From Escherichia phage JohannLBurckhardt: a stretch of DNA of 49,715 nt. The notes under the pieces are model-generated. The model was not told the origin of the DNA. It did no database searches and was given only the letters and a program-made list of their open reading frames with translations. Each line of letters starts with the position of its first letter. Positions within the stretch are counted from its first letter, which is position 1. This document shows, piece after piece, positions 2,177-22,723 of the stretch. Location: sequence record MZ501085; one strand, given 5' to 3'. The position numbers and the translations under genes were made by a program.

Positions 2177-3451
2177 ATGACCGAGAAAACAAAACTCGTT
2201 AAGGCTGACGGCTACAACGAGATCTTTAAGGGAGAGCAGCGAGTAGAGACGCCATTTTATATGCAGGGCGGCGTTGCAAAACAAAGTCTTGCAACATTCT
2301 ACGAGCGTGACGGCATGGCGAAGCGAATCATCGACGTTATCCCGGAGGACATGGTTACGCCAGGCTTTAACGTTGACGGTGTGAAAGACGAGGCAGCATT
2401 CCGCTCTTTGTGGGATGAAAAGAAGCTAAACGCTAAAATCATTGACGCGCTTTGCTGGTCGCGCTTGTTTGGCGGCTCCGCCATTGTCGCAGTTATCAAC
2501 GATGGGCGCATGTTGAAATCTCCAGTTAAAGAAGGAGCGCCACTTGAAGATATTCGCGTTTATGACCGATTCCAGATCCGAGTTGAGAAGCGAGAAACAA
2601 ACGCGCGTAGCGTGCGCTACGGCGAGCCTGTTTTGTACACCATCATGCCAGGCGGCGAGATTCCAGAGTATCAGGTGCATTACACGCGAATCTGCATCAT
2701 TGACGGAGAGCGCTTGCCTAACGAGCAGCGCCGGAAAAATGATGGTTGGGGTGCGTCAGTCCTCAACAAGAAGCTGATCGAAGCAATCCACGATTACAAC
2801 TATTGTGAGGAGTTAGCAACTCAGCTTTTGCGACGCAAGCAGCAAGCAGTTTGGAAAGCTAAAGGACTCGCGGATTTGTGCGACGATGAAGAAGGTGTGT
2901 CGGCGGCGCGGCTGCGATTGGCTCAAGTTGACGACGAGGGCGGCGTTGGTCGGGCAATCGGCATTGACGCAACGGACGAGGAATATGAGGTGCTTAACTC
3001 TGATATTTCCGGCGTAGACGCTTTCCTTGAGAAGAAAATGGATCGCATCGTTTCGCTTACTGGCATCCATGAAATCATCTTGAAGAACAAAAACACCGGA
3101 GGCGTTAGCGCAAGCCAAAACACCGCGCTTGATACATATCACAAGCTAATTGAGCGCAAGCGCAAAGAGGACTACAAGCCGATCCTGGAGTTCCTCTTGC
3201 CATTCATGATCGCAGAGCAAGAATGGTCTATTTCGTTTGATCCGCTTTCGGTTCCAAGCAGCAAAGACCAGGCCGAGATCTTGAATAAAAACATTGACTC
3301 GATCAGTAAGGCGATTGAAGGTCAGTTTATGGATGTTGAGGAAGGACGCGACACATTGCGCTCTATTGCTCCGTCTCTTAAACTGAAAGACGGAAACAAA
3401 ATCAAGCTACCGGAGCCGGAATCTGAGCCGGAGCCAGGAACGGAGGTATAA
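2177..3451 (+). CDS. portal protein
   Basis: 424 aa directly after terL; ATG 2177 chosen (GGAG 9 nt upstream); the GTG 2123 start of the track ORF would contain the hairpin 2133-2160. Confidence 0.75.
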   Translation: MTEKTKLVKADGYNEIFKGEQRVETPFYMQGGVAKQSLATFYERDGMAKRIIDVIPEDMVTPGFNVDGVKDEAAFRSLWDEKKLNAKIIDALCWSRLFGGSAIVAVINDGRMLKSPVKEGAPLEDIRVYDRFQIRVEKRETNARSVRYGEPVLYTIMPGGEIPEYQVHYTRICIIDGERLPNEQRRKNDGWGASVLNKKLIEAIHDYNYCEELATQLLRRKQQAVWKAKGLADLCDDEEGVSAARLRLAQVDDEGGVGRAIGIDATDEEYEVLNSDISGVDAFLEKKMDRIVSLTGIHEIILKNKNTGGVSASQNTALDTYHKLIERKRKEDYKPILEFLLPFMIAEQEWSISFDPLSVPSSKDQAEILNKNIDSISKAIEGQFMDVEEGRDTLRSIAPSLKLKDGNKIKLPEPESEPEPGTEV

Positions 3452-4215: not shown

Positions 4216-5331
4216 ATGAAAAAGGTACAGCGTTTTGATAGCGTTCAGGTGAAAGCAAAGATTGACGAGCACGGTTTTCTTGTAGACCGTCCGATTGTTG
4301 CTCGTATCGGCTTGCAGGTTTACAAAACACCGTTTGGGGAGCGCCGAGAGTTTCGCCCCGCCTCGGAGGTTTTTAAGGCTGACTCACTGGCTACGTTTTC
4401 AGGTAAGCCGATCACAATCGGGCACGTAACAGTTACGCCGGAGAATGCAAAAGAGGTTGTAGTTGGTGCGTGTGCTGGCGCTGGCGTGCCAAACGGGATC
4501 GGCGTTGAGGTTCCGTTGAGCATTTACGACAAGCGAGCCATTCAGAGCGCGAAGGAAAAACAGACGGCGGAGTTATCGGTTGGTTACACCTCCGTTGATA
4601 TTGATAAACCAGGTTGGGGTAATAATGCCACTGGTGAGTATTTCTTTGATGAAGATATGCCTGAGGGCTGGAAAGCTGACTCGGATGATTGGGTGCGATT
4701 CGATGCGGTTCAAACGAATATCAGCGTGAATCATATCGCTATGGTGTTCAAAGGCCGCGCAGGTATCGCAAAATTAAATCTTGATAGCGAGCAGGAATTC
4801 CCGTATCATGACGAGGAATTTTCAAACAAAGAGGATGAAGTTATGACCGTAAAAATCAAACTGGACGGCGCGGTAGAGTTTGACGTGCCAAAAGAGGTAG
4901 CAGCTCACATCAACGCGATCACCGCAAAAGCAGATGCAGCAACCGCAAAAGCTGACGGCCTGGAAGCGGAGCGTGATGCACTTCAAGCGAAAGTAGACGG
5001 CATTCCGGCACAAATCGAGGCTGCGGTTGCTAAGGCAAAAGCTGACGCAGAGGCGCACGCCGAACTGGTTGCGGTTGCTGGTGAGGCTGGCGTTAAGTGC
5101 GACGGCCTGGACGCAAAAGCGATCAAAGTTGCCTACGTCAAAGAGGTTACTGGCGCTGACATCGCAGAGAAAACCGACGCTTATATTGATGCGGCGTTTG
5201 ATCTGGCGAAAAACTCTGATAAAATGGCAGCACAGCGCAAAGCCATTAAAGGCGATGCAGAGAAGCAAGAGAAGCAAGACGGCGAAGATAAACCGCTGAA
5301 TCCTGCGGCTCGTTTGGCTAAAGTACAGTAA
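4216..5331 (+). CDS. putative scaffolding / prohead-associated protein
   Basis: 371 aa, acidic, Ala/Lys-rich coiled-coil-like C-terminal half; between head-morphogenesis and capsid genes. Confidence 0.45.
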   Translation: MKKVQRFDSVQVKAKIDEHGFLVDRPIVARIGLQVYKTPFGERREFRPASEVFKADSLATFSGKPITIGHVTVTPENAKEVVVGACAGAGVPNGIGVEVPLSIYDKRAIQSAKEKQTAELSVGYTSVDIDKPGWGNNATGEYFFDEDMPEGWKADSDDWVRFDAVQTNISVNHIAMVFKGRAGIAKLNLDSEQEFPYHDEEFSNKEDEVMTVKIKLDGAVEFDVPKEVAAHINAITAKADAATAKADGLEAERDALQAKVDGIPAQIEAAVAKAKADAEAHAELVAVAGEAGVKCDGLDAKAIKVAYVKEVTGADIAEKTDAYIDAAFDLAKNSDKMAAQRKAIKGDAEKQEKQDGEDKPLNPAARLAKVQ

Positions 5332-16177: not shown

Positions 16178-16222
16178 GCAACCTCAAAACAGCACAAATT
16201 GTTAAAACTGGAGGCCAAAACT

Positions 16223-19200
16223 ATGATAAGCGGCAATAAGGGCGGCTCCTCTAAGCCGTATACGCCAAAGGAGATGGAGGACAACCTGATCTCCATCAAC
16301 AAAATCAAGATCCTCCTGGCGGTTTCAGACGGCGAGGTAGACGGCGAGTTTTCGTTAAAAAATCTCTATCTTGACGATGTGCCAGTGCAAAACGCAGACG
16401 GCTCGATTAACTATAGCGGTGTTAGTGCTGAGTTCCGGCCAGGCACTCAAACGCAGGACTACATTAAGGGGTTTTCCGACACGTCAAGCGAGATCACGAT
16501 TCAGCGAGATCTCGCGCAGAATAACCCTTACAGCATTGCGGTAACAAACAAATCACTATCTGCTATCAGAATCAAAATCCTGATGCCTCAGGGCTACAAG
16601 CAGGAGGATAACGGCGATCTGGTTGGTGTATCAGTGCAATACGCGGTTGATATGGCTGTAGACGGTGGCTCATTCCAGCGAGTTCTGACTGATACGATCA
16701 CTGGCAAGACAACAAGCGGCTACGACCGCAGCCAGCGAATCGACCTACCAGCATTCAACGAGCAGGTGATTTTGCGCGTTAGCCGAATCACGCCGGACTC
16801 TAACACAAGCCGAGTTGTTGACGCGATCAGATTGCAGAGCTATGCGGAGGTTGTTGATGCAAAATTCCGTTACCCTCTGACTGGTCTTGTTTACGTTGAG
16901 TTTGATAGCGAGCTTTTCCCGACTCAGCTACCGAACATTTCTATCAAGAAGAAATGGAAGCTGATCAAGGTTCCTGTTAACTACGATCCAGATTCGCGCA
17001 CCTATAGCGGATCATGGAATGGTTTATTCAAGACGGCGTGGAGCAATAACCCTGCTTGGGTTCTGTATGATCTGATCACCAATCAGCGCTACGGACTCGA
17101 CCAAAGGGAGCTTGGGATTGAGATCGACAAGTGGAGCATCTACGAGGCGGCGCAGTATTGCGATCAGATGGTTCCCGATGGTAAGGGCGGTTTAGAGCCT
17201 CGCTATCTTTGTGATGTGGTTATCCAGAGCCAGATTGAGGCGTTTAACCTTATCCGCGATATTTGCTCAATCTTTCGTGGTATGAGCTTTTGGAACGGCG
17301 AGAGCCTTTCCATTGTGGTGGATAAGCCGCGCGATCCGTCTTACATTTTCAGCAATGACAACGTGGTAAACGGCGATTTTCAGTACACATTTGCGAGCGA
17401 AAAAAGCATGTACACGCAGTGCAACGTGACTTTCGACGACGAGCAAAACATGTACAGCCAGGATATTGAGGGCGTTTTCGATACTGAGGCCGCTTTGCGT
17501 TTTGGTCACAATCCGACAAGCATCACCGCAATCGGATGCACACGACGCAGCGAGGCGAACCGCCGAGGGCGCTGGATTCTCAAGACCAACCTGCGCAGCA
17601 CTACGGTAAACTTTGCAACTGGTCTTGAGGGCATGATCCCGACAATCGGAGACGTGATCGCAATCGCGGACAACTTCTGGGCTAGCAACTTGACGCTTAA
17701 TCTTTCGGGGCGCGTCATGGAGGTTTCAGGGCTGCAAGTTTTCCTCCCGTTCCGAGTTGATGCGCGGCATGGTGATTTTATCCTGATCAACAAGCCGGAC
17801 GGAAAGCCAGTTAAGCGCACTATTTCACGAGTTAGCGCAGACGGGAAAACTATTGAGTTAAACGTTGGCTTTGGTTTCGACGTTAAGCCGGACACGGTTT
17901 TTGCAATCGACAGGACTGATCTTGCGTTGCAGCAGTACGTTGTTACCGGAATCACCAGGGGTGACGATACGGAGCAATTCACGTACTCAATAACGGCGGT
18001 CGAATACGATCCAAACAAGTACGACGAAATTGATTACGGAGTGAACATTGACGACAGGCCAACAAGCATTGTAAACCCTGGTGTGATGAAAGCGCCTGAA
18101 AATGTCCAGGTGTCCTCTTACTCTCGCATTGTTCAGGGGCAGAGCGTAGAAACGATGGTTGTTAGCTGGGACAAGGTAGAATATGCAAGCTTGTACGAGG
18201 TGCAATGGAGAAAGGACAATAGCAACTGGCTAAACGTTCCTCAGACTGCAAACAAAGAGGTTAGCGTTGAGGGTATTTACTCAGGCAACTACTTTGTAAG
18301 GGTGCGATCTGTTTCTGCATCCGGCAGCACTTCCCCGTGGTCTGAGATTGTATCGGCGGCGCTGACAGGTAAGGTGGGGGAGCCAAGCGCACCAATAAAC
18401 CTAACTGCCTCCGACGATGAAATTTTCGGGATTAGGATCAAATGGGGTATGCCAGAAGGATCAGGTGACACTGCATACGTAGAGCTACAGCAAGCGCCGG
18501 ACGTAGACGGAAGGGCTAGCGAAGAAAACGCAACACTGCTAACTCTCGTTCCGTATCCTCAAATGGAGTATTGGCACGCAACGTTACCACCTGGATATAT
18601 CAACTGGTATCGAGTTCGAAGTGTTGACAGGATCGGAAACGTTTCTGCATGGACTGACTTTGCGCGCGGTATGTCGTCAACTAACGTTGATGATATTTTA
18701 GGCGACATTCTTGATGATATTTTAAACTCTGCTGGGTTTGATGAGTTCAAAGAGAATGCCGTAGATACTGCAAACAAGGTTAAAGACCAGGCGCAAAGCG
18801 TGATCCAGAATGCGCTAGCTATTGATACCAATCTGCGCTGGAACCGAGTAGAAAACGGGAAGCGTAAAGCTGAGCACGGACAGGCGCTTGAGCTTATCGC
18901 AAACGAGACTGAGGCGAGAATCCAGGCGGTTGACATTCTCCGTACTGAGTTTGACGAGGGAATATCCTCAGGAATCACAGAGGTTAAATCCCTTATCTCT
19001 AATGAGTCGGAGACGCGAGCGCAGCAGGTGCAGCAGCTTGAATCTACGTTCACAACCGAGATCGGAAAGACAAACGCAAACGTGAGTAGCGCACAGCAAG
19101 CGATTGCAAACGAGACTGAGGCAAGGACTCAAGCGGTTAGCTCTCTCGATGCCAAATTCTCAGGGCAGATTGACGGCGTGAATCAAGAAATCGCGTCAAA

Positions 19201-19759
19201 TATCAGCCAGGTTAACCAGGCGATTGCTAACGAGGCTTCCGCGCGATCCTCAGCAGATACGGCGTTATCTACTCGGATCGGAAACACTGAGTCAGCAGTA
19301 ACGCAGAAACTTGACTCATGGATTGATAACGGTCAAGTGGGTGCTCAGTACGCGCTCAAGCTTGGGATTAAGAGCGGCGGCCTTGAGTACACCTCTGGTG
19401 TCTCATTGTCTCTTGTGCAAACTGGATCCGGCGTTCAATCTCAATTCCTGGTAGATGCGGCCAGGTTTGGGGTAATGACTCAACAGGGGGGCAGCTACAC
19501 ATTGCCGTTTGTAGTTGATAATGGAACGGTTATCATGAATACGGCGCTAATTAAAAACGGCTCTATAACCAACGCAATGATTGGTAACGTGATTCAGTCA
19601 AACGATTATGTTGCTGGTTATTCCGGTTGGAGGCTGGACAAAAACGGAAACCTTGAGATTAACGGCAGAGCCGGAAATGGCAGACTGACCATTAACAACA
19701 ACATTATCGCGGTTTACGATGGTAATGGCGTCTTGAGGGTTCGAATGGGATTGTTCTAA
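16223..19759 (+). CDS. host specificity / central tail fibre protein (lambda gpJ-like)
   Basis: 1178 aa from ATG 16223 (RBS CTGGAGG); largest tail gene after M/L/K/I-like genes; C-terminal tandem NETEAR-type repeats. Confidence 0.85.
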   Translation: MISGNKGGSSKPYTPKEMEDNLISINKIKILLAVSDGEVDGEFSLKNLYLDDVPVQNADGSINYSGVSAEFRPGTQTQDYIKGFSDTSSEITIQRDLAQNNPYSIAVTNKSLSAIRIKILMPQGYKQEDNGDLVGVSVQYAVDMAVDGGSFQRVLTDTITGKTTSGYDRSQRIDLPAFNEQVILRVSRITPDSNTSRVVDAIRLQSYAEVVDAKFRYPLTGLVYVEFDSELFPTQLPNISIKKKWKLIKVPVNYDPDSRTYSGSWNGLFKTAWSNNPAWVLYDLITNQRYGLDQRELGIEIDKWSIYEAAQYCDQMVPDGKGGLEPRYLCDVVIQSQIEAFNLIRDICSIFRGMSFWNGESLSIVVDKPRDPSYIFSNDNVVNGDFQYTFASEKSMYTQCNVTFDDEQNMYSQDIEGVFDTEAALRFGHNPTSITAIGCTRRSEANRRGRWILKTNLRSTTVNFATGLEGMIPTIGDVIAIADNFWASNLTLNLSGRVMEVSGLQVFLPFRVDARHGDFILINKPDGKPVKRTISRVSADGKTIELNVGFGFDVKPDTVFAIDRTDLALQQYVVTGITRGDDTEQFTYSITAVEYDPNKYDEIDYGVNIDDRPTSIVNPGVMKAPENVQVSSYSRIVQGQSVETMVVSWDKVEYASLYEVQWRKDNSNWLNVPQTANKEVSVEGIYSGNYFVRVRSVSASGSTSPWSEIVSAALTGKVGEPSAPINLTASDDEIFGIRIKWGMPEGSGDTAYVELQQAPDVDGRASEENATLLTLVPYPQMEYWHATLPPGYINWYRVRSVDRIGNVSAWTDFARGMSSTNVDDILGDILDDILNSAGFDEFKENAVDTANKVKDQAQSVIQNALAIDTNLRWNRVENGKRKAEHGQALELIANETEARIQAVDILRTEFDEGISSGITEVKSLISNESETRAQQVQQLESTFTTEIGKTNANVSSAQQAIANETEARTQAVSSLDAKFSGQIDGVNQEIASNISQVNQAIANEASARSSADTALSTRIGNTESAVTQKLDSWIDNGQVGAQYALKLGIKSGGLEYTSGVSLSLVQTGSGVQSQFLVDAARFGVMTQQGGSYTLPFVVDNGTVIMNTALIKNGSITNAMIGNVIQSNDYVAGYSGWRLDKNGNLEINGRAGNGRLTINNNIIAVYDGNGVLRVRMGLF

Positions 19760-19766
19760 TAGAAAA

Positions 19767-19793
19767 GGGAGCCTTTCGGCTCCCTCTTTTTTT
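19767..19793 (+). terminator. rho-independent terminator
   Basis: AGGGAGCC-tttc-GGCTCCCT followed by 8 T. Confidence 0.85.
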
Positions 19794-20124
19794 ACATCAA
19801 TTTGTTGTGGTCTACAGGGGTTCTGTTTGTTTGCTTAGTGATCATATCGAGCTTGTATTCATCGCCGCGATTCCACTCGAAGCGAAGGGTATACGTGTTA
19901 GCGTCACCGTAACACATTACGTGCTTGAATTTGCGCAAGTGCTTGTCAAAGATCACGTTTGTGCTCTCCTCAATCTTCACCGTTCGATCCGAGCAGTTTA
20001 CAACGGCGACGGTTGAGCCAGTAAGAGACATTCTGGAAGCGTCAACCGGATAGCCGATATTAACGTTCAAAGCCATAGCGTTTAAAGGTGCTACAAGAGC
20101 CATAGCGAGCATGATTTTTTTCAT
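19792..20124 (-). CDS. secreted/periplasmic protein with signal peptide; candidate superinfection-exclusion (Cor/Llp-like) protein
   Basis: 110 aa from ATG 20124 (RBS GAGGA); N-terminus MKKIMLAMALVAPLNAMA is a signal peptide; sits directly downstream of gene J on the opposite strand with its own promoter motif. Confidence 0.45.
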   Translation of the reverse strand: MKKIMLAMALVAPLNAMALNVNIGYPVDASRMSLTGSTVAVVNCSDRTVKIEESTNVIFDKHLRKFKHVMCYGDANTYTLRFEWNRGDEYKLDMITKQTNRTPVDHNKLM

Positions 20125-20155
20125 TGGTATTTCCTCGATTCGTTGATTTGAATTG

Positions 20156-20199
20156 ATTATAGACACCAATCAGGACGGATGTTTAGCAATTCGTGCTAT
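20156..20199 (-). promoter_or_regulatory. palindrome-type promoter element (site m)
   Basis: On - strand: TAGCA-cgaat-TGCTA, 22 nt, TATAAT; TAA stop of upstream gene abuts motif; leader has CAACGAA. Confidence 0.55.
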
Positions 20200-20849
20200 T
20201 AGTTCCATCCGAGGAATTTAGCCATTGGGATCTTAAAGTTTCCGCGCCCGTTAAAGATATCGTTAAAACCTCGCTGATTTCGCTTTATCCACGTTGTCTG
20301 CAATTCCGAGCCAGTCCAGCGCATTAGGTTTCCAGAATATCCGCTAACCACTCCGTCGTCGCTGATTTCACCCACGCACGACTCCCACAGAAAGAATGGG
20401 TTGTAACCAGGGTAAACGCTCGCAATGTTACCCTCAAGAGGCCAGTTTCCGGCAACCTCAAGGAATCCAGTAACGCGAGGCATTGAAGCAGCGCCAACGG
20501 CAGACCAGATCAATTGACCCGAACCGTCGAAAACGTCAAGCACTCCAGATGGAAAGTTTGCGTTTCTCGTTGTCCTGATAACGCGTATTGAGTTGGGGAG
20601 AAATAAGTTATCTCCAGGGAATCCCCAAGCGCCGTTAAAAAGGAATTGCACCCAATGCAAGTATCCATCCTGCTTCCAGTAGTTTTGGTTTAGCGATGCC
20701 AGCGAGCTAACATTTCCAAACGGGGTGTTTAGATTGTAATCGCCAGTGTTTAAGTATGTTGGGGTGTACGACGAATGATAGATCGTGTGTTTCTGATCTG
20801 AATTAATCATCATCGCGCCAGAGTTATTGTATACCTCAAAACCAGGCAT
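20199..20849 (-). CDS. hypothetical protein (Asn/Gly/Tyr-rich), paralog of 20859..21158
   Basis: 216 aa; RBS GGAGGT; contains two copies of the SG(L/V)xxxDG(A/S)G(N/Q)LI module found at the N-terminus of the neighbouring ORF. Confidence 0.6.
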   Translation of the reverse strand: MPGFEVYNNSGAMMINSDQKHTIYHSSYTPTYLNTGDYNLNTPFGNVSSLASLNQNYWKQDGYLHWVQFLFNGAWGFPGDNLFLPNSIRVIRTTRNANFPSGVLDVFDGSGQLIWSAVGAASMPRVTGFLEVAGNWPLEGNIASVYPGYNPFFLWESCVGEISDDGVVSGYSGNLMRWTGSELQTTWIKRNQRGFNDIFNGRGNFKIPMAKFLGWN

Positions 20850-20858
20850 ATTACCTCC

Positions 20859-21158
20859 CTAATTAAATTTATAAACTTCAATATCCATAACAACATCGCT
20901 AAACGGGTTGCTGGTTGGTAGATATATCACATCAACCGCACCGTCCCGCGTAACGCACGCGTAAGAGCTTCCTATGTAGGCGTTAGACCACTTTATAGCG
21001 GCAAACGAGTTGTAGCCGTTTATACCCCCAACGGCAAACGAAACGATCGCGGTTGTTCGAGGGAATACTATTTGCTGGCGATGCACAAAACGAGTGCTGA
21101 AGTCGCCCAGGTCAACAATCAGATTCCCCGCCCCATCCCACGCTTGAAGACCAGACAT
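20859..21158 (-). CDS. hypothetical protein
   Basis: 99 aa; RBS GAGGTGG; first gene of - strand operon transcribed from the AT-rich region. Confidence 0.6.
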   Translation of the reverse strand: MSGLQAWDGAGNLIVDLGDFSTRFVHRQQIVFPRTTAIVSFAVGGINGYNSFAAIKWSNAYIGSSYACVTRDGAVDVIYLPTSNPFSDVVMDIEVYKFN

Positions 21159-21194
21159 AATGCCACCTCACTAGTTTGCTTGTTAAGTGCATTT

Positions 21195-21223
21195 AATATA
21201 CAGGCGTGGCGTAATCATTTCAA
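21195..21223 (-). promoter_or_regulatory. sigma70-like promoter for - strand cluster
   Basis: On - strand TTGAAA - 17 nt - TATATT about 37 nt upstream of ATG 21158. Confidence 0.45.
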
Positions 21224-21343
21224 TAACAAGTGAGAATCCTTGCCGTTATTGTTTTTCTTGTTTCTCGGTGTTCTCTATTGCACCCACCGCAGAATCGCAC
21301 AACGTTTCAGAACAGAAAAAACAAATAAATCATCTATAATATA

Positions 21344-21384
21344 TAATAAAATCAATAGTTTAGTTTATATGTATTTGTATATTG
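21344..21384 (+). repeat. AT-rich conserved block, copy 1 (direct repeat with 40699..40737)
   Basis: TAATAAAATCAATAGTTTA identical 19-mer plus similar flanks in both AT-rich intergenic regions. Confidence 0.7.
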
Positions 21385-21606
21385 TTATTTATTGTTTCCA
21401 CTGTTTCAGTGTTAATTGATGCACTGGCTTGCTTTCGTCTGGATATCTCTATTAGCCATTTGATGTGTGTATTTATATAAACCCCACCGCAAATCCGCGA
21501 ACAATGAAACAAAAAATAACGACGTTTAAAATCATGCACTTAATCGCTGATTTTGTTATCTTGGTTGAAAGATGCGTTTCGAGAACAGAAAAAACAATTG
21601 ATGGTA

Positions 21607-21634
21607 TTGACTAAACGCCACAAATGGCTACAAT
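21607..21634 (+). promoter_or_regulatory. sigma70-like promoter for recombination module
   Basis: TTGACT - 16 nt - TACAAT, about 30 nt upstream of ATG 21665. Confidence 0.55.
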
Positions 21635-21664
21635 GCACGTATACCAACACACAGGAGCGAAAGA

Positions 21665-22723
21665 ATGAGTGAGTTTAAAGTTTTCACTAGCGCAGAAATG
21701 CCAAACAGTGAGTATCACGATCCGAATAGCTGGACGGCTGAGTACACAAGCGGATCGAATCTGGCTGAGGTTTTCCAGTCCTCACCAGCATCCTGGAAAT
21801 TCAAAGAGCGAGACGACAACGCAAAGCCGCTAATTTTCGGCACTCAGTCGCATACAAACTTTGAGAGCAAGGCACTGTTTGAGGCTCAATATCGCAGAGC
21901 GCCAGCGCCGGAGGAGTTCAAGGATCTTATTACCAGTCAAACGGCTCTCGCTGCGAAACTGAAATCTTTCGGCCTGAAAGGTACAAGCGGGAAGCAGTAT
22001 CCAGATCTGATTAAGATGATGGTTGATTGTGGTGAGGATTTGCAGGTTCAATGGCTGATTGAAATGATCGCAGAATCAGAAGCGCGTGCTGCTGGAGTCG
22101 AGCTTGTAAACGCAAAAGATTATGACGCTTGTGTAGCCATGCGCCAGGTTCTTGAGTCGATACCGGAGCATAACGCGTGCATGAACAGCCCAACCGCGCA
22201 GCGCGAGCTTTCGATTTTTGGCGTTATCAACGGCGTCAAGGTAAAAGTCAGACTGGATCACATTGACGAATGCGAAAACGTAGAGTTTACGCTAATCACT
22301 GGATATGACGACAAAGGACAACCAATTTGCGAAGACGTTGTTTATCCTGAGGCTATTGTGATCACGGACTACAAAACCACAATGAGTGCCAACCCCCTCG
22401 AATTTGAGCGCCTGGCATTCAATCACGGCTACTATTTAAAAATGGCCTTGCAGCATGATTTATTCCGCAAGGCTTACCCGAACGAAACGCGCCCCATAGT
22501 GGTTCGACTGCTGGCGCAGGAGAAGAAAAAGCCTTACTTGCCGCTGGCGTACCGCATGAACAGCGAGCAACTCAAGATCGGGCGCATTCAGTACATGAGC
22601 GTGATCAATCAGTTTGCAATGTGCCAGGCGCATAACATCTGGCCTTCATACGCAAACGGAGCGCCGGAGGTTTCACTGACCACTCCTGATTGGGTGAGAC
22701 GCCAGTACAAAGAATTTCTGTAA
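21665..22723 (+). CDS. PD-(D/E)XK recombination exonuclease (RecB/Cas4/YqaJ-like)
   Basis: 352 aa; D..(ITDYK) nuclease motif order; first gene of module that also has Erf and SSB. Confidence 0.6.
   Translation: MSEFKVFTSAEMPNSEYHDPNSWTAEYTSGSNLAEVFQSSPASWKFKERDDNAKPLIFGTQSHTNFESKALFEAQYRRAPAPEEFKDLITSQTALAAKLKSFGLKGTSGKQYPDLIKMMVDCGEDLQVQWLIEMIAESEARAAGVELVNAKDYDACVAMRQVLESIPEHNACMNSPTAQRELSIFGVINGVKVKVRLDHIDECENVEFTLITGYDDKGQPICEDVVYPEAIVITDYKTTMSANPLEFERLAFNHGYYLKMALQHDLFRKAYPNETRPIVVRLLAQEKKKPYLPLAYRMNSEQLKIGRIQYMSVINQFAMCQAHNIWPSYANGAPEVSLTTPDWVRRQYKEFL

Follow-up and report, generated by a model that had tools for sequence, protein, structure and literature searches.

The locus downstream of J

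In the DNA of Escherichia phage JohannLBurckhardt (Bas11; sequence record MZ501085), analysed here as one stretch of 49,715 nucleotides (nt) that we call the window, three genes occupy positions 19792-21158, directly downstream of the gene for the J-like tail-tip protein, which ends at 19759. A sequence-only reading of the window had placed a strand flip after J and three minus-strand genes at 19792..20124, 20199..20849 and 20859..21158, and the open reading frames (ORFs) are found just there. Their products, of 110, 216 and 99 amino acids (aa), are exact sequence matches to bas11_0023, bas11_0024 and bas11_0025 of JohannLBurckhardt, and both the identity of the genes and their synteny with J are established. 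The homologues in phage IsaakIselin (Bas10) were named RBP-1 (QXV80560, 217 aa), RBP-2 (QXV80561, 101 aa) and SIP-1 (QXV80559, 110 aa) in Sci Adv 2025 (PMC12124388), RBP standing for receptor-binding protein; these accessions correspond to bas10_0025, bas10_0026 and bas10_0024, respectively. The features of the locus are as follows.

16199..19759, plus strand: GpJ-like central tail fibre or tail-tip protein, 1186 aa, presumed docking platform of the module (Pfam matches, ORF list)
19703..19756, plus strand: C-terminal signature of J, its last 18 codons (IIAVYDGNGVLRVRMGLF), putative docking site
19766..19785: bidirectional intrinsic terminator hairpin between the convergent J and 110-aa genes (terminator scan and folding)
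19792..20124, minus strand: exported 110-aa protein, bas11_0023 (QXV81627.1) by exact match, homologue of IsaakIselin SIP-1
20071..20124, minus strand: signal peptide, residues 1-18 (MKKIMLAMALVAPLNAMA), putative cleavage after AMA, no lipobox
20156..20185, minus strand: candidate sigma-70-like promoter of the 110-aa gene, TAAACA-18-TATAAT (promoter scan)
20199..20849, minus strand: candidate large receptor-binding subunit, 216 aa, bas11_0024, RBP-1 homologue (phrog_4524, precomputed Pfam PF28254)
20508..20549, minus strand: hairpin motif SGVLDVFDGSGQLI, residues 101-114 of the 216-aa protein, at the start of its second half (pattern and model)
20805..20846, minus strand: degenerate N-terminal copy of the hairpin, PGFEVYNNSGAMMI, residues 2-15 of the 216-aa protein (pattern and model)
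20859..21158, minus strand: candidate small receptor-binding subunit, 99 aa, bas11_0025 by exact match, RBP-2 homologue (phrog_7961)
21117..21155, minus strand: hairpin motif SGLQAWDGAGNLI at the N-terminus of the 99-aa protein (residues 2-14), where the small-subunit family is most conserved (pattern)
21195..21223, minus strand: candidate sigma-70-like promoter of the three-gene operon, TTGAAA-17-TATATT (promoter scan)

Pfam recognised FNIII-A_GpJ, Phage-tail_3, fn3 and Phage_Tail_Tip (residues 1034-1167) in the 1186-aa J protein. Seven bases 3' of the J stop codon lies the GC-rich terminator hairpin, flanked by an A-run and, opposite, by a T-run; its minus-strand RNA has a folding energy of -19.6 kcal/mol (z = -4.3) and is followed by UUUUCU, and on the plus strand it is followed by a T7 run. 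The 99-aa and 216-aa genes are separated by 9 nt and the 216-aa and 110-aa genes by 74 nt, and a Shine-Dalgarno sequence stands in front of each of the three. The 110-aa gene is counted here from its ATG; a TTG-extended ORF reaches 20169. Measured against the Klebsiella phage Skenny and the E. coli phage LF82-10, the ratio of nonsynonymous to synonymous substitution rates (dN/dS) is 0.07-0.16 for all three genes, which indicates purifying selection, and for this reason we take the three ORFs to be real genes. Nothing was matched by an Rfam scan of 19700-21700.

JohannLBurckhardt is listed in the BASEL collection among the Drexlerviridae, subfamily Tempevirinae, with YncD as its terminal receptor (BASEL Table S5; PMC8594841). 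[quoted passage not shown] A 2026 preprint confirmed the correlation between locus and receptor, listed a YncD-associated family and termed the four RBP families unrelated. Infection by IsaakIselin was found to depend on yncD, with complementation (BASEL, PMC8594841), and for phage IME347 YncD is required for adsorption, infection being independent of TonB. We found that IME347 encodes homologues of all three proteins, its large subunit being 66% identical to the 216-aa protein. YncD is now named PqqU and is the TonB-dependent importer of pyrroloquinoline quinone (PQQ). In IsaakIselin, whose infection is prevented by PQQ, AlphaFold-multimer models have RBP-1 and RBP-2 paired as a heterodimer at the extracellular side of open PqqU, with SIP-1, which carries a signal peptide, at the periplasmic side; SIP-1 resembles the TonB C-terminal domain according to Foldseek and was proposed to act in superinfection exclusion like Llp of T5 (PMC12124388).

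IsaakIselin and JohannLBurckhardt share the three families, the gene order, the strand, the position after J and, according to BASEL, the YncD receptor. The homology of the two trios is established: RBP-1 of IsaakIselin is 59-60% identical to the window protein (100% coverage), RBP-2 63-65% and SIP-1 96%, and the 216-aa protein falls within the published RBP-1 family (>30% identity, >99% coverage). In the DNA, identity to IsaakIselin is 53-74% over the two RBP genes (20200-21100) against 95-99% in the J end, the SIP-1 gene (95-98% for this gene itself) and the upstream intergenic region. As both phages are listed with YncD, the two RBP genes have diverged within one receptor class. This RBP allele is ~95% identical in the Klebsiella phages Samwise, Skenny and mtp and 85-90% identical in the E. 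coli LF82 phages. A stretch of lower DNA identity to IsaakIselin (67-84%) was also seen in the distal shaft of J (19000-19500, residues ~934-1100), just before Phage_Tail_Tip, with 91-99% in the last ~250 nt of the gene, and this part of the shaft is a second mosaic patch beside the RBP cassette. Identity over the first 25 kb of the window is 96% with Klebsiella phage Samwise and 93-95% with the Escherichia phages IsaakIselin and Henu7; this best DNA match, to a Klebsiella phage in the GenBank phage collection searched, could suggest a wrong host, as the host here is E. coli K-12.

The candidate receptor-binding pair

The sequence-only reading had described the 99-aa and 216-aa proteins as Asn/Gly-rich paralogues sharing an SG(L/V)xxxDG(A/S)G(N/Q)LI module, present once in the former and twice in the latter. 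The exact pattern SG[LV]xxxDG[AS]G[NQ]LI has a single match, at residues 2-14 of the 99-aa protein; one residue of slack brings in residues 101-114 of the 216-aa protein, and a looser hairpin pattern residues 3-14 of the same protein. The single copy in the small protein is thereby upheld, and the two copies in the large one appear only with degenerate matching. We regard the motif as specific, since the six-frame totals over the whole window for the exact, slack and looser patterns are only 1, 2 and 4. A separate stricter pattern, covering residues 3-14 of the 99-aa protein and residues 3-14 of the 216-aa protein, was equalled in 1 of 20,000 shuffles of both proteins, and the three motif segments are among the best-conserved parts of their families. 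As to composition, Asn plus Gly accounts for 22% of the 216-aa protein against a background of 12.6%; the description as Asn/Gly-rich fits this protein and is only marginal for the 99-aa protein (15%).

The paralogy of the two genes was not significant in direct comparisons of their products by BLASTP or in a first comparison of hidden Markov models (HMMs) with hhalign, and what stands of the claim is a remote, profile-level relation of the small protein to the C-terminal half of the large one. The broader small-subunit family (58 sequences) aligned with residues 103-172 of the large family over 66 columns (E ~1e-3 to 3e-3, probability 11-20%). One and the same family, phrog_2427, was matched by the small protein gp24 of phage HK639 (E 1.3e-8), by residues 102-177 of its large protein gp25 (E 4.7e-4) and by the 99-aa protein (E 0.0019).

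The cassettes of FhuA-type phages (T1, N15, HK022 and phi80) are composed as the one described here, with a ~100-aa protein, a ~220-aa protein and a small exported protein. In T1 these are gp32 (101 aa), gp31 (229 aa) and the lipoprotein Cor, encoded on the opposite strand, and, as in the window, the small member has one copy of the hairpin motif and the large member two. By hhalign, the 99-aa family aligned with the T1 gp32 family over 88 columns (probability 80.8%, E 1.3e-5), a remote homology across different PHROGs, and with residues 110-206 of T1 gp31 (probability 87.3%, E 3.8e-6); T1 gp32 aligned with residues 109-210 of gp31 (58%, E 9.6e-5). The match of the 216-aa family with the gp31 family had an E of 0.03 and a probability of 1.7%, yet it was in register (102-186 with 111-200). 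In the structural models, the predicted strands of the 99-aa protein are nearly in register with those in the 216-aa protein's first half, and its first three elements agree with the second half as well. On the strength of the broader-family, phrog_2427 and T1-family profile comparisons, together with this strand register, we conclude that the 99-aa protein is remotely paralogous to the large subunit's C-terminal half; the N-terminal halves of the large subunits gave no sequence signal in the profile comparison.

An exhaustive HMMER search with the 99-aa profile returned 56 clusters, nearly all of them stand-alone proteins of ~100 aa and none of the 216- or 320-aa type. Five separate matches to the core of that profile (~29-90), with E down to 1e-10, were seen in each of four metagenomic proteins of 1380-2520 aa (P0071, P0074, P0089 and P0106), which may represent surface proteins rich in repeats and built with a related beta-sandwich domain, or else a compositional artefact.

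The AlphaFold2 (AF2) model of the 216-aa protein (predicted local distance difference test, pLDDT, 87; predicted template modelling score, pTM, 0.81) is confident and all-beta, with predicted strands around the second motif at E105-107 and E113-116, and with its first 20 residues poorly defined; as the N-terminal hairpin is poorly modelled in the monomer, it is possibly a partner-binding segment. The pLDDT of the 99-aa model was 72. The best structural match in the fold search was a solved RBP bound to its receptor, and BFVD contained the large-subunit fold in ~20 uncharacterised proteins of phages of Gram-negative bacteria. The large subunit matched phrog_4524 (E 5.6e-54) and PF28254.1 was precomputed on 25 of 25 large-subunit homologues, while the Pfam scan of the three proteins returned only sub-threshold noise (DUF6334, RM6_Med14) and sequence and profile searches of the PDB nothing meaningful for any of the three families. 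Neither the 99-aa nor the 216-aa protein has a hydrophobic segment (maximal Kyte-Doolittle values over 19 residues, 1.24 and 0.98).

The three families were present in 56, 49 and 43 records of a GenBank phage set. The IMG/VR set was scanned with the large-subunit alignment, because the SIP-1 alignment as query found only 5 loci, and this gave 80 loci with a large-subunit homologue. The small gene adjoins the large gene on one strand in 79 of the 80, and a SIP-1 homologue accompanies the large subunit in every one. In 73 loci, which are HK639-like and lambdoid, the small gene and then the large gene come directly after J on its strand and the SIP-1 gene lies on the other, with overlaps of stop and start codons in HK639 and ENT39118; 6 loci have the inverted arrangement of the Drexlerviridae found in the window.

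The end of J also varies with the type of locus. A J C-terminus was detected in 78 YncD-type loci, and the commonest tails, which account for at least 72 of them, end in ...YDxNxxLRVRMGL[WF]; the tails listed for the 50 FhuA-type loci end in ...LRVQ[IV]G[RK]LTGx[FW], and those listed for the 80 LptD-type loci in ...GGRVVVGxW(S/T). The hairpin at the end of J (IAVYDGNGVLRVRMG) looks like the one at the N-terminus of the small subunit (LQAWDGAGNLIVDLG), and in the small-subunit family the first 25 residues are near-invariant and the remainder variable. From the type-specific J tails, the likeness of the hairpins and the near-invariant N-terminus we infer an N-terminal dock onto J combined with a variable working surface.

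Some of these genes are missing from public annotation. The small RBP subunit is unannotated in the Cronobacter phages SG01 (locus L006, about 2214-2500) and ENT39118 (L008, about 3001-3290), where it starts at or overlaps the J stop codon. In Cronobacter phages the 99-aa domain had seemed to be fused to J in the Rosetta-stone manner; this was discarded, as the overlap proved to be an unannotated gene starting at the J stop codon. In Acinetobacter phage XC38, an N4-like podophage of the Schitoviridae (L007, 2593-3657), the same small and large pair (hhalign probabilities 97% and 99%) directly follows a giant tail protein; this tail protein ends in ...YDDNNKLRVRMGLW, like YncD-type J proteins, and the small-subunit homologue has an extra hydrophobic N-terminus of 28 residues.

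The exported protein and its expression

The clear signal peptide claimed for the 110-aa protein in the sequence-only reading was recovered by eye, from a hydrophobic N-terminus and an invariant AMA. The sequence MKKIMLAMALVAPLNAMA↓LN resembles a signal-peptidase-I site, the segment is the only hydrophobic stretch of the protein, and the first Cys is at residue 44. All Drexlerviridae homologues read AMA↓(L/F)N, with no Cys there. The further suggestion of a Cor/Llp-type lipoprotein does not hold for JohannLBurckhardt, whose protein has AMA↓LN instead of a lipobox with Cys at +1 and belongs to an unrelated family: it matches phrog_25729 only, whereas T1 Cor and OzMSK_039 match phrog_1119 and phrog_4281, which places it outside the Cor (phrog_1119) and Rtp45-like (phrog_4281) families. 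What it has in common with Cor, Llp and Rtp45 is to be a small exported protein encoded beside the RBP genes of a siphophage that targets an outer-membrane protein, and we consider it a non-lipoprotein exclusion candidate for a TonB-dependent transporter.

The lambdoid homologues are different in this respect, for their signal peptides mostly end in Cys, as in L(L/A)AG↓C. A strict lipobox pattern was found in 60 of the 80 SIP-1 homologues, and most of the others also end the signal peptide in GC. Since the lambdoid forms carry this Cys and the Drexlerviridae forms carry AMA without it, the SIP-1 family appears to comprise both lipidated and soluble periplasmic proteins. The position of the SIP-1 gene on the opposite strand in lambdoid elements fits with expression apart from the late operon, and the homologue may then be expressed from a prophage. 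The SIP-1-like lipoprotein of HK639 is unannotated in the public record (L004, 3607-3969, minus strand). In KW1E_UTAR (locus positions 2021-2791), an annotated ORF of 256 aa has a SIP-1-like domain as its last 100 residues, preceded by a hydrophobic segment that ends in SPAQA; this form may reflect an internal start or a membrane-anchored version.

The 110-aa gene had also been credited with a palindrome-type promoter of its own, a description that finds no support here. Consensus-like -10 and -35 elements are there, yet the repeat finder reported no inverted repeat in 20125-20198, where by eye only the 6-bp arms GAATTG/CAATTC can be seen, and for this region the promoter scan returned 7 sites, where chance alone would give 4.2. 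Within the window the 24-nt promoter region is unique. Its -10 element is kept in Skenny and LF82-10 and reads TATACT in IsaakIselin; the site is absent in KL3, where only 10 nt lie between the RBP gene and the SIP-1 gene, and a private SIP-1 promoter is therefore not universal. In IsaakIselin the spacer before SIP-1 (about 4426-4499 of its locus) has a GC hairpin (GCCCCGCAAATGGGGC) together with TATACT, and the window (20125-20198), Skenny and LF82-10 have TGATTGGTGTCTATAAT instead, such that the regulation of the exported gene may differ between close relatives.

On its other side, the RBP operon is separated from a divergent exonuclease VIII-like gene by an AT-rich intergenic region of 506 nt (21159-21664). 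It contains promoter-like sites facing either way, at 21223..21195 for the minus strand and at 21607..21634 for the plus strand, as well as AT-rich inverted repeats at 21316-21383. The gap of ~530 nt between cor and the exonuclease gene in T1 is comparable.

Function of the cassette, alternatives and relatives

We consider it very probable that the cluster is the YncD/PqqU-type receptor-specificity and exclusion cassette of the T1-like phage JohannLBurckhardt. The sequence-only reading had named it a candidate receptor-recognition/exclusion module, and the identity with Bas11, the YncD receptor, the homology to RBP-1, RBP-2 and SIP-1 of IsaakIselin and the fold search all point the same way.

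In the mechanism that we propose, the 216-aa and 99-aa proteins would be cytoplasmic, all-beta proteins made late, and would be mounted as a heterodimer at the C-terminal end of the J trimer, with the conserved N-terminal hairpins of the WDxxGxL type as the probable means of attachment. The heterodimer would grip the extracellular face of open, PQQ-free YncD/PqqU, leading to commitment to DNA injection. The 110-aa protein would be exported by the Sec pathway, lose its signal peptide to signal peptidase I and bind the periplasmic face of YncD/PqqU, where, as the mimic of the TonB C-terminal domain described in the published model, it would make the receptor unusable for incoming phages and prevent progeny from being wasted on debris. 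The exclusion logic would be like that of T5 Llp, T1 Cor and Rtp45, but achieved with an unrelated protein. A conserved binder of the periplasmic face beside diverging binders of the outer face, as in the comparison with IsaakIselin, is what this model predicts.

Several points weigh against the proposed cassette. The papers considered here report no bench test of the three proteins, be it virion proteomics, binding or exclusion, and the published PqqU complexes of the Bas10 proteins are AlphaFold predictions. The promoter before the 110-aa gene is a consensus match only, and the 110-aa protein gave no TonB_C or PDB match in sequence searches. In the ~45-kb phages KW1E_UTAR, KLB22 and KLB16, a SIP-1-like domain is encoded ~28 kb from the RBP pair. 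Finally, a 2026 paper on KanT1 reads gp32 and gp31 of T1 as membrane proteins perhaps assisting Cor.

The last of these points leads to the view that the 99-aa and 216-aa proteins are accessory proteins associated with the host membrane, working in exclusion with the exported protein, and no adhesins of the virion. The PHROG annotations of T1 ST32 and ST31 speak for it, the KanT1 paper found no Foldseek or HHpred matches for the T1 pair and assumed a link to Cor, and both genes are always near an exclusion-type gene. We nevertheless hold it to be very unlikely, as neither protein has a signal peptide or transmembrane segment, 73 of the 80 loci have the pair in the late tail operon directly behind J and the exported gene on the other strand, a receptor-bound RBP came out best in the fold search, the J C-terminus varies by module type and the published model puts the pair on the extracellular face of the receptor. 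A division of labour within the pair, with the 216-aa protein as the only virion adhesin and the 99-aa protein, like tail-fibre assembly factors of the Tfa or gp38 type, as a chaperone or adaptor that the adhesin requires for folding or attachment and that makes no contact with the receptor, would suit a small protein encoded always directly upstream of the large gene, with a strongly conserved N-terminus and a monomer model of lower confidence. The remote homology of the 99-aa protein is, however, to the C-terminal half of the large subunit and not to a known chaperone family, between Bas10 and Bas11 its variable C-terminal two-thirds diverge in step with the large subunit, which would be expected of a surface facing a receptor or partner, and the published model has the small subunit within the receptor-binding heterodimer; we judge this division of labour unlikely.

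Equally improbable, in our estimate, is that the 110-aa protein does not exclude phages and has some other effect on the host, for example a block of TonB-dependent PQQ uptake, or an unrelated periplasmic role. An exclusion phenotype has never been measured, the reported fold resembling the TonB C-terminal domain is also compatible with simple uncoupling of the transporter, and in KW1E_UTAR, KLB22 and KLB16 the domain is located far from the RBP pair. Against this, the protein accompanies this RBP type in all 80 loci, occupies the same position as the proven exclusion lipoproteins of FhuA- and LptD-type loci, lies in the 73 lambdoid loci on the strand opposite to the late genes and mostly with a lipobox, which fits separate expression, and is 96% identical to its IsaakIselin counterpart while the RBP genes diverge. 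Least credible of all is that J carries the receptor specificity, as it does in lambda and in TolC- and LamB-type T1-like phages, and that the three genes are dispensable passengers: although several annotations and the 2023 FhuA paper take J as the RBP of T1-like phages, and the distal J (19000-19500) also differs from that of Bas10, the receptor is tracked by the locus type and not by the phylogeny of J in two large phage collections, the tip domain of J is widely conserved, and the genes of the cassette, on which purifying selection is strong, recombine together as one unit.

Placed beside other cassettes, the YncD/PqqU-type cassette differs from the FhuA type in its receptor, in the C-terminal signature of J and in its exported protein, Cor (phrog_1119) being unrelated to the 110-aa protein. 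On the FhuA side the small proteins are not discussed in a cryo-electron microscopy study of T1, in which the distal part of J is unresolved, nor in the J Virol 2023 FhuA paper, which treats J as the RBP of T1-like phages. The LptD type has a single-chain RBP of 320 aa (DUF6453; the Oekolampad RBP, PDB 9rpt chain C; Rtp44) in place of the two chains found here; its receptor is not a TonB-dependent transporter, and its exclusion protein Rtp45 is a lipoprotein of ~6 kDa that sterically displaces LptD loops. In T5, which also uses FhuA, pb5 is a single chain of 640 aa encoded at another genomic locus, and the 110-aa protein, without a lipobox here, is not similar to the acylated lipoprotein Llp. 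The homology of the YncD-type pair to T1 gp32/gp31, carried by the small subunit, and the possible fold link to the solved LptD binder are both remote. No Pfam match linked DUF6453 to the window proteins, and hhalign gave E > 0.1. By eye, the DUF6453 RBP has three hairpin-like motifs ~100 residues apart, and the two window proteins add up to 315 residues (99 + 216); however, profile comparisons revealed neither internal repeats in DUF6453 nor a link of DUF6453 to the other families, and because they give no support, a common origin from three repeats stays speculative.

With these relatives in mind, we tentatively suggest, at somewhat less than even chances, that the YncD-type pair, the FhuA-type pair and possibly the single-chain LptD RBP descend from one modular tail-tip adhesin, the exclusion factor having been replaced independently. 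Such an adhesin might consist of beta-sandwich repeats of ~100 residues, three per module, split 1+2 or fused, opening with WDxxGxL-type hairpins like the one at the end of J and fitted to a J C-terminus that is specific for each type. The small subunit may have arisen by an ancient duplication of the large one's C-terminal half, and the exclusion factor might be a Cor/Llp-type lipoprotein, Rtp45, or the SIP-1 domain in its lipidated and soluble forms.

Earlier publications have already described the locus by receptor genetics and structure modelling, and for this reason the cassette itself is no discovery. What our analysis adds is modest: the half-subunit paralogy, the homology to T1 gp32/gp31, a possible fold link to a solved RBP, the type-specific J tails, and the lipidated as against soluble forms of SIP-1. 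YncD/PqqU is a conserved importer of a vitamin-like cofactor in E. coli, Klebsiella, Salmonella and Pseudomonas, and because the cassette decides which outer-membrane receptor a T1-like phage uses, it is a natural handle for predicting and re-engineering host range. The remote homology and the possible fold link speak against the annotation of T1 gp32 and gp31 as membrane proteins and suggest a common two-subunit architecture at the tip of J; if the single-ancestor proposal is true, RBP families that were recently called 'unrelated' would form one superfamily.

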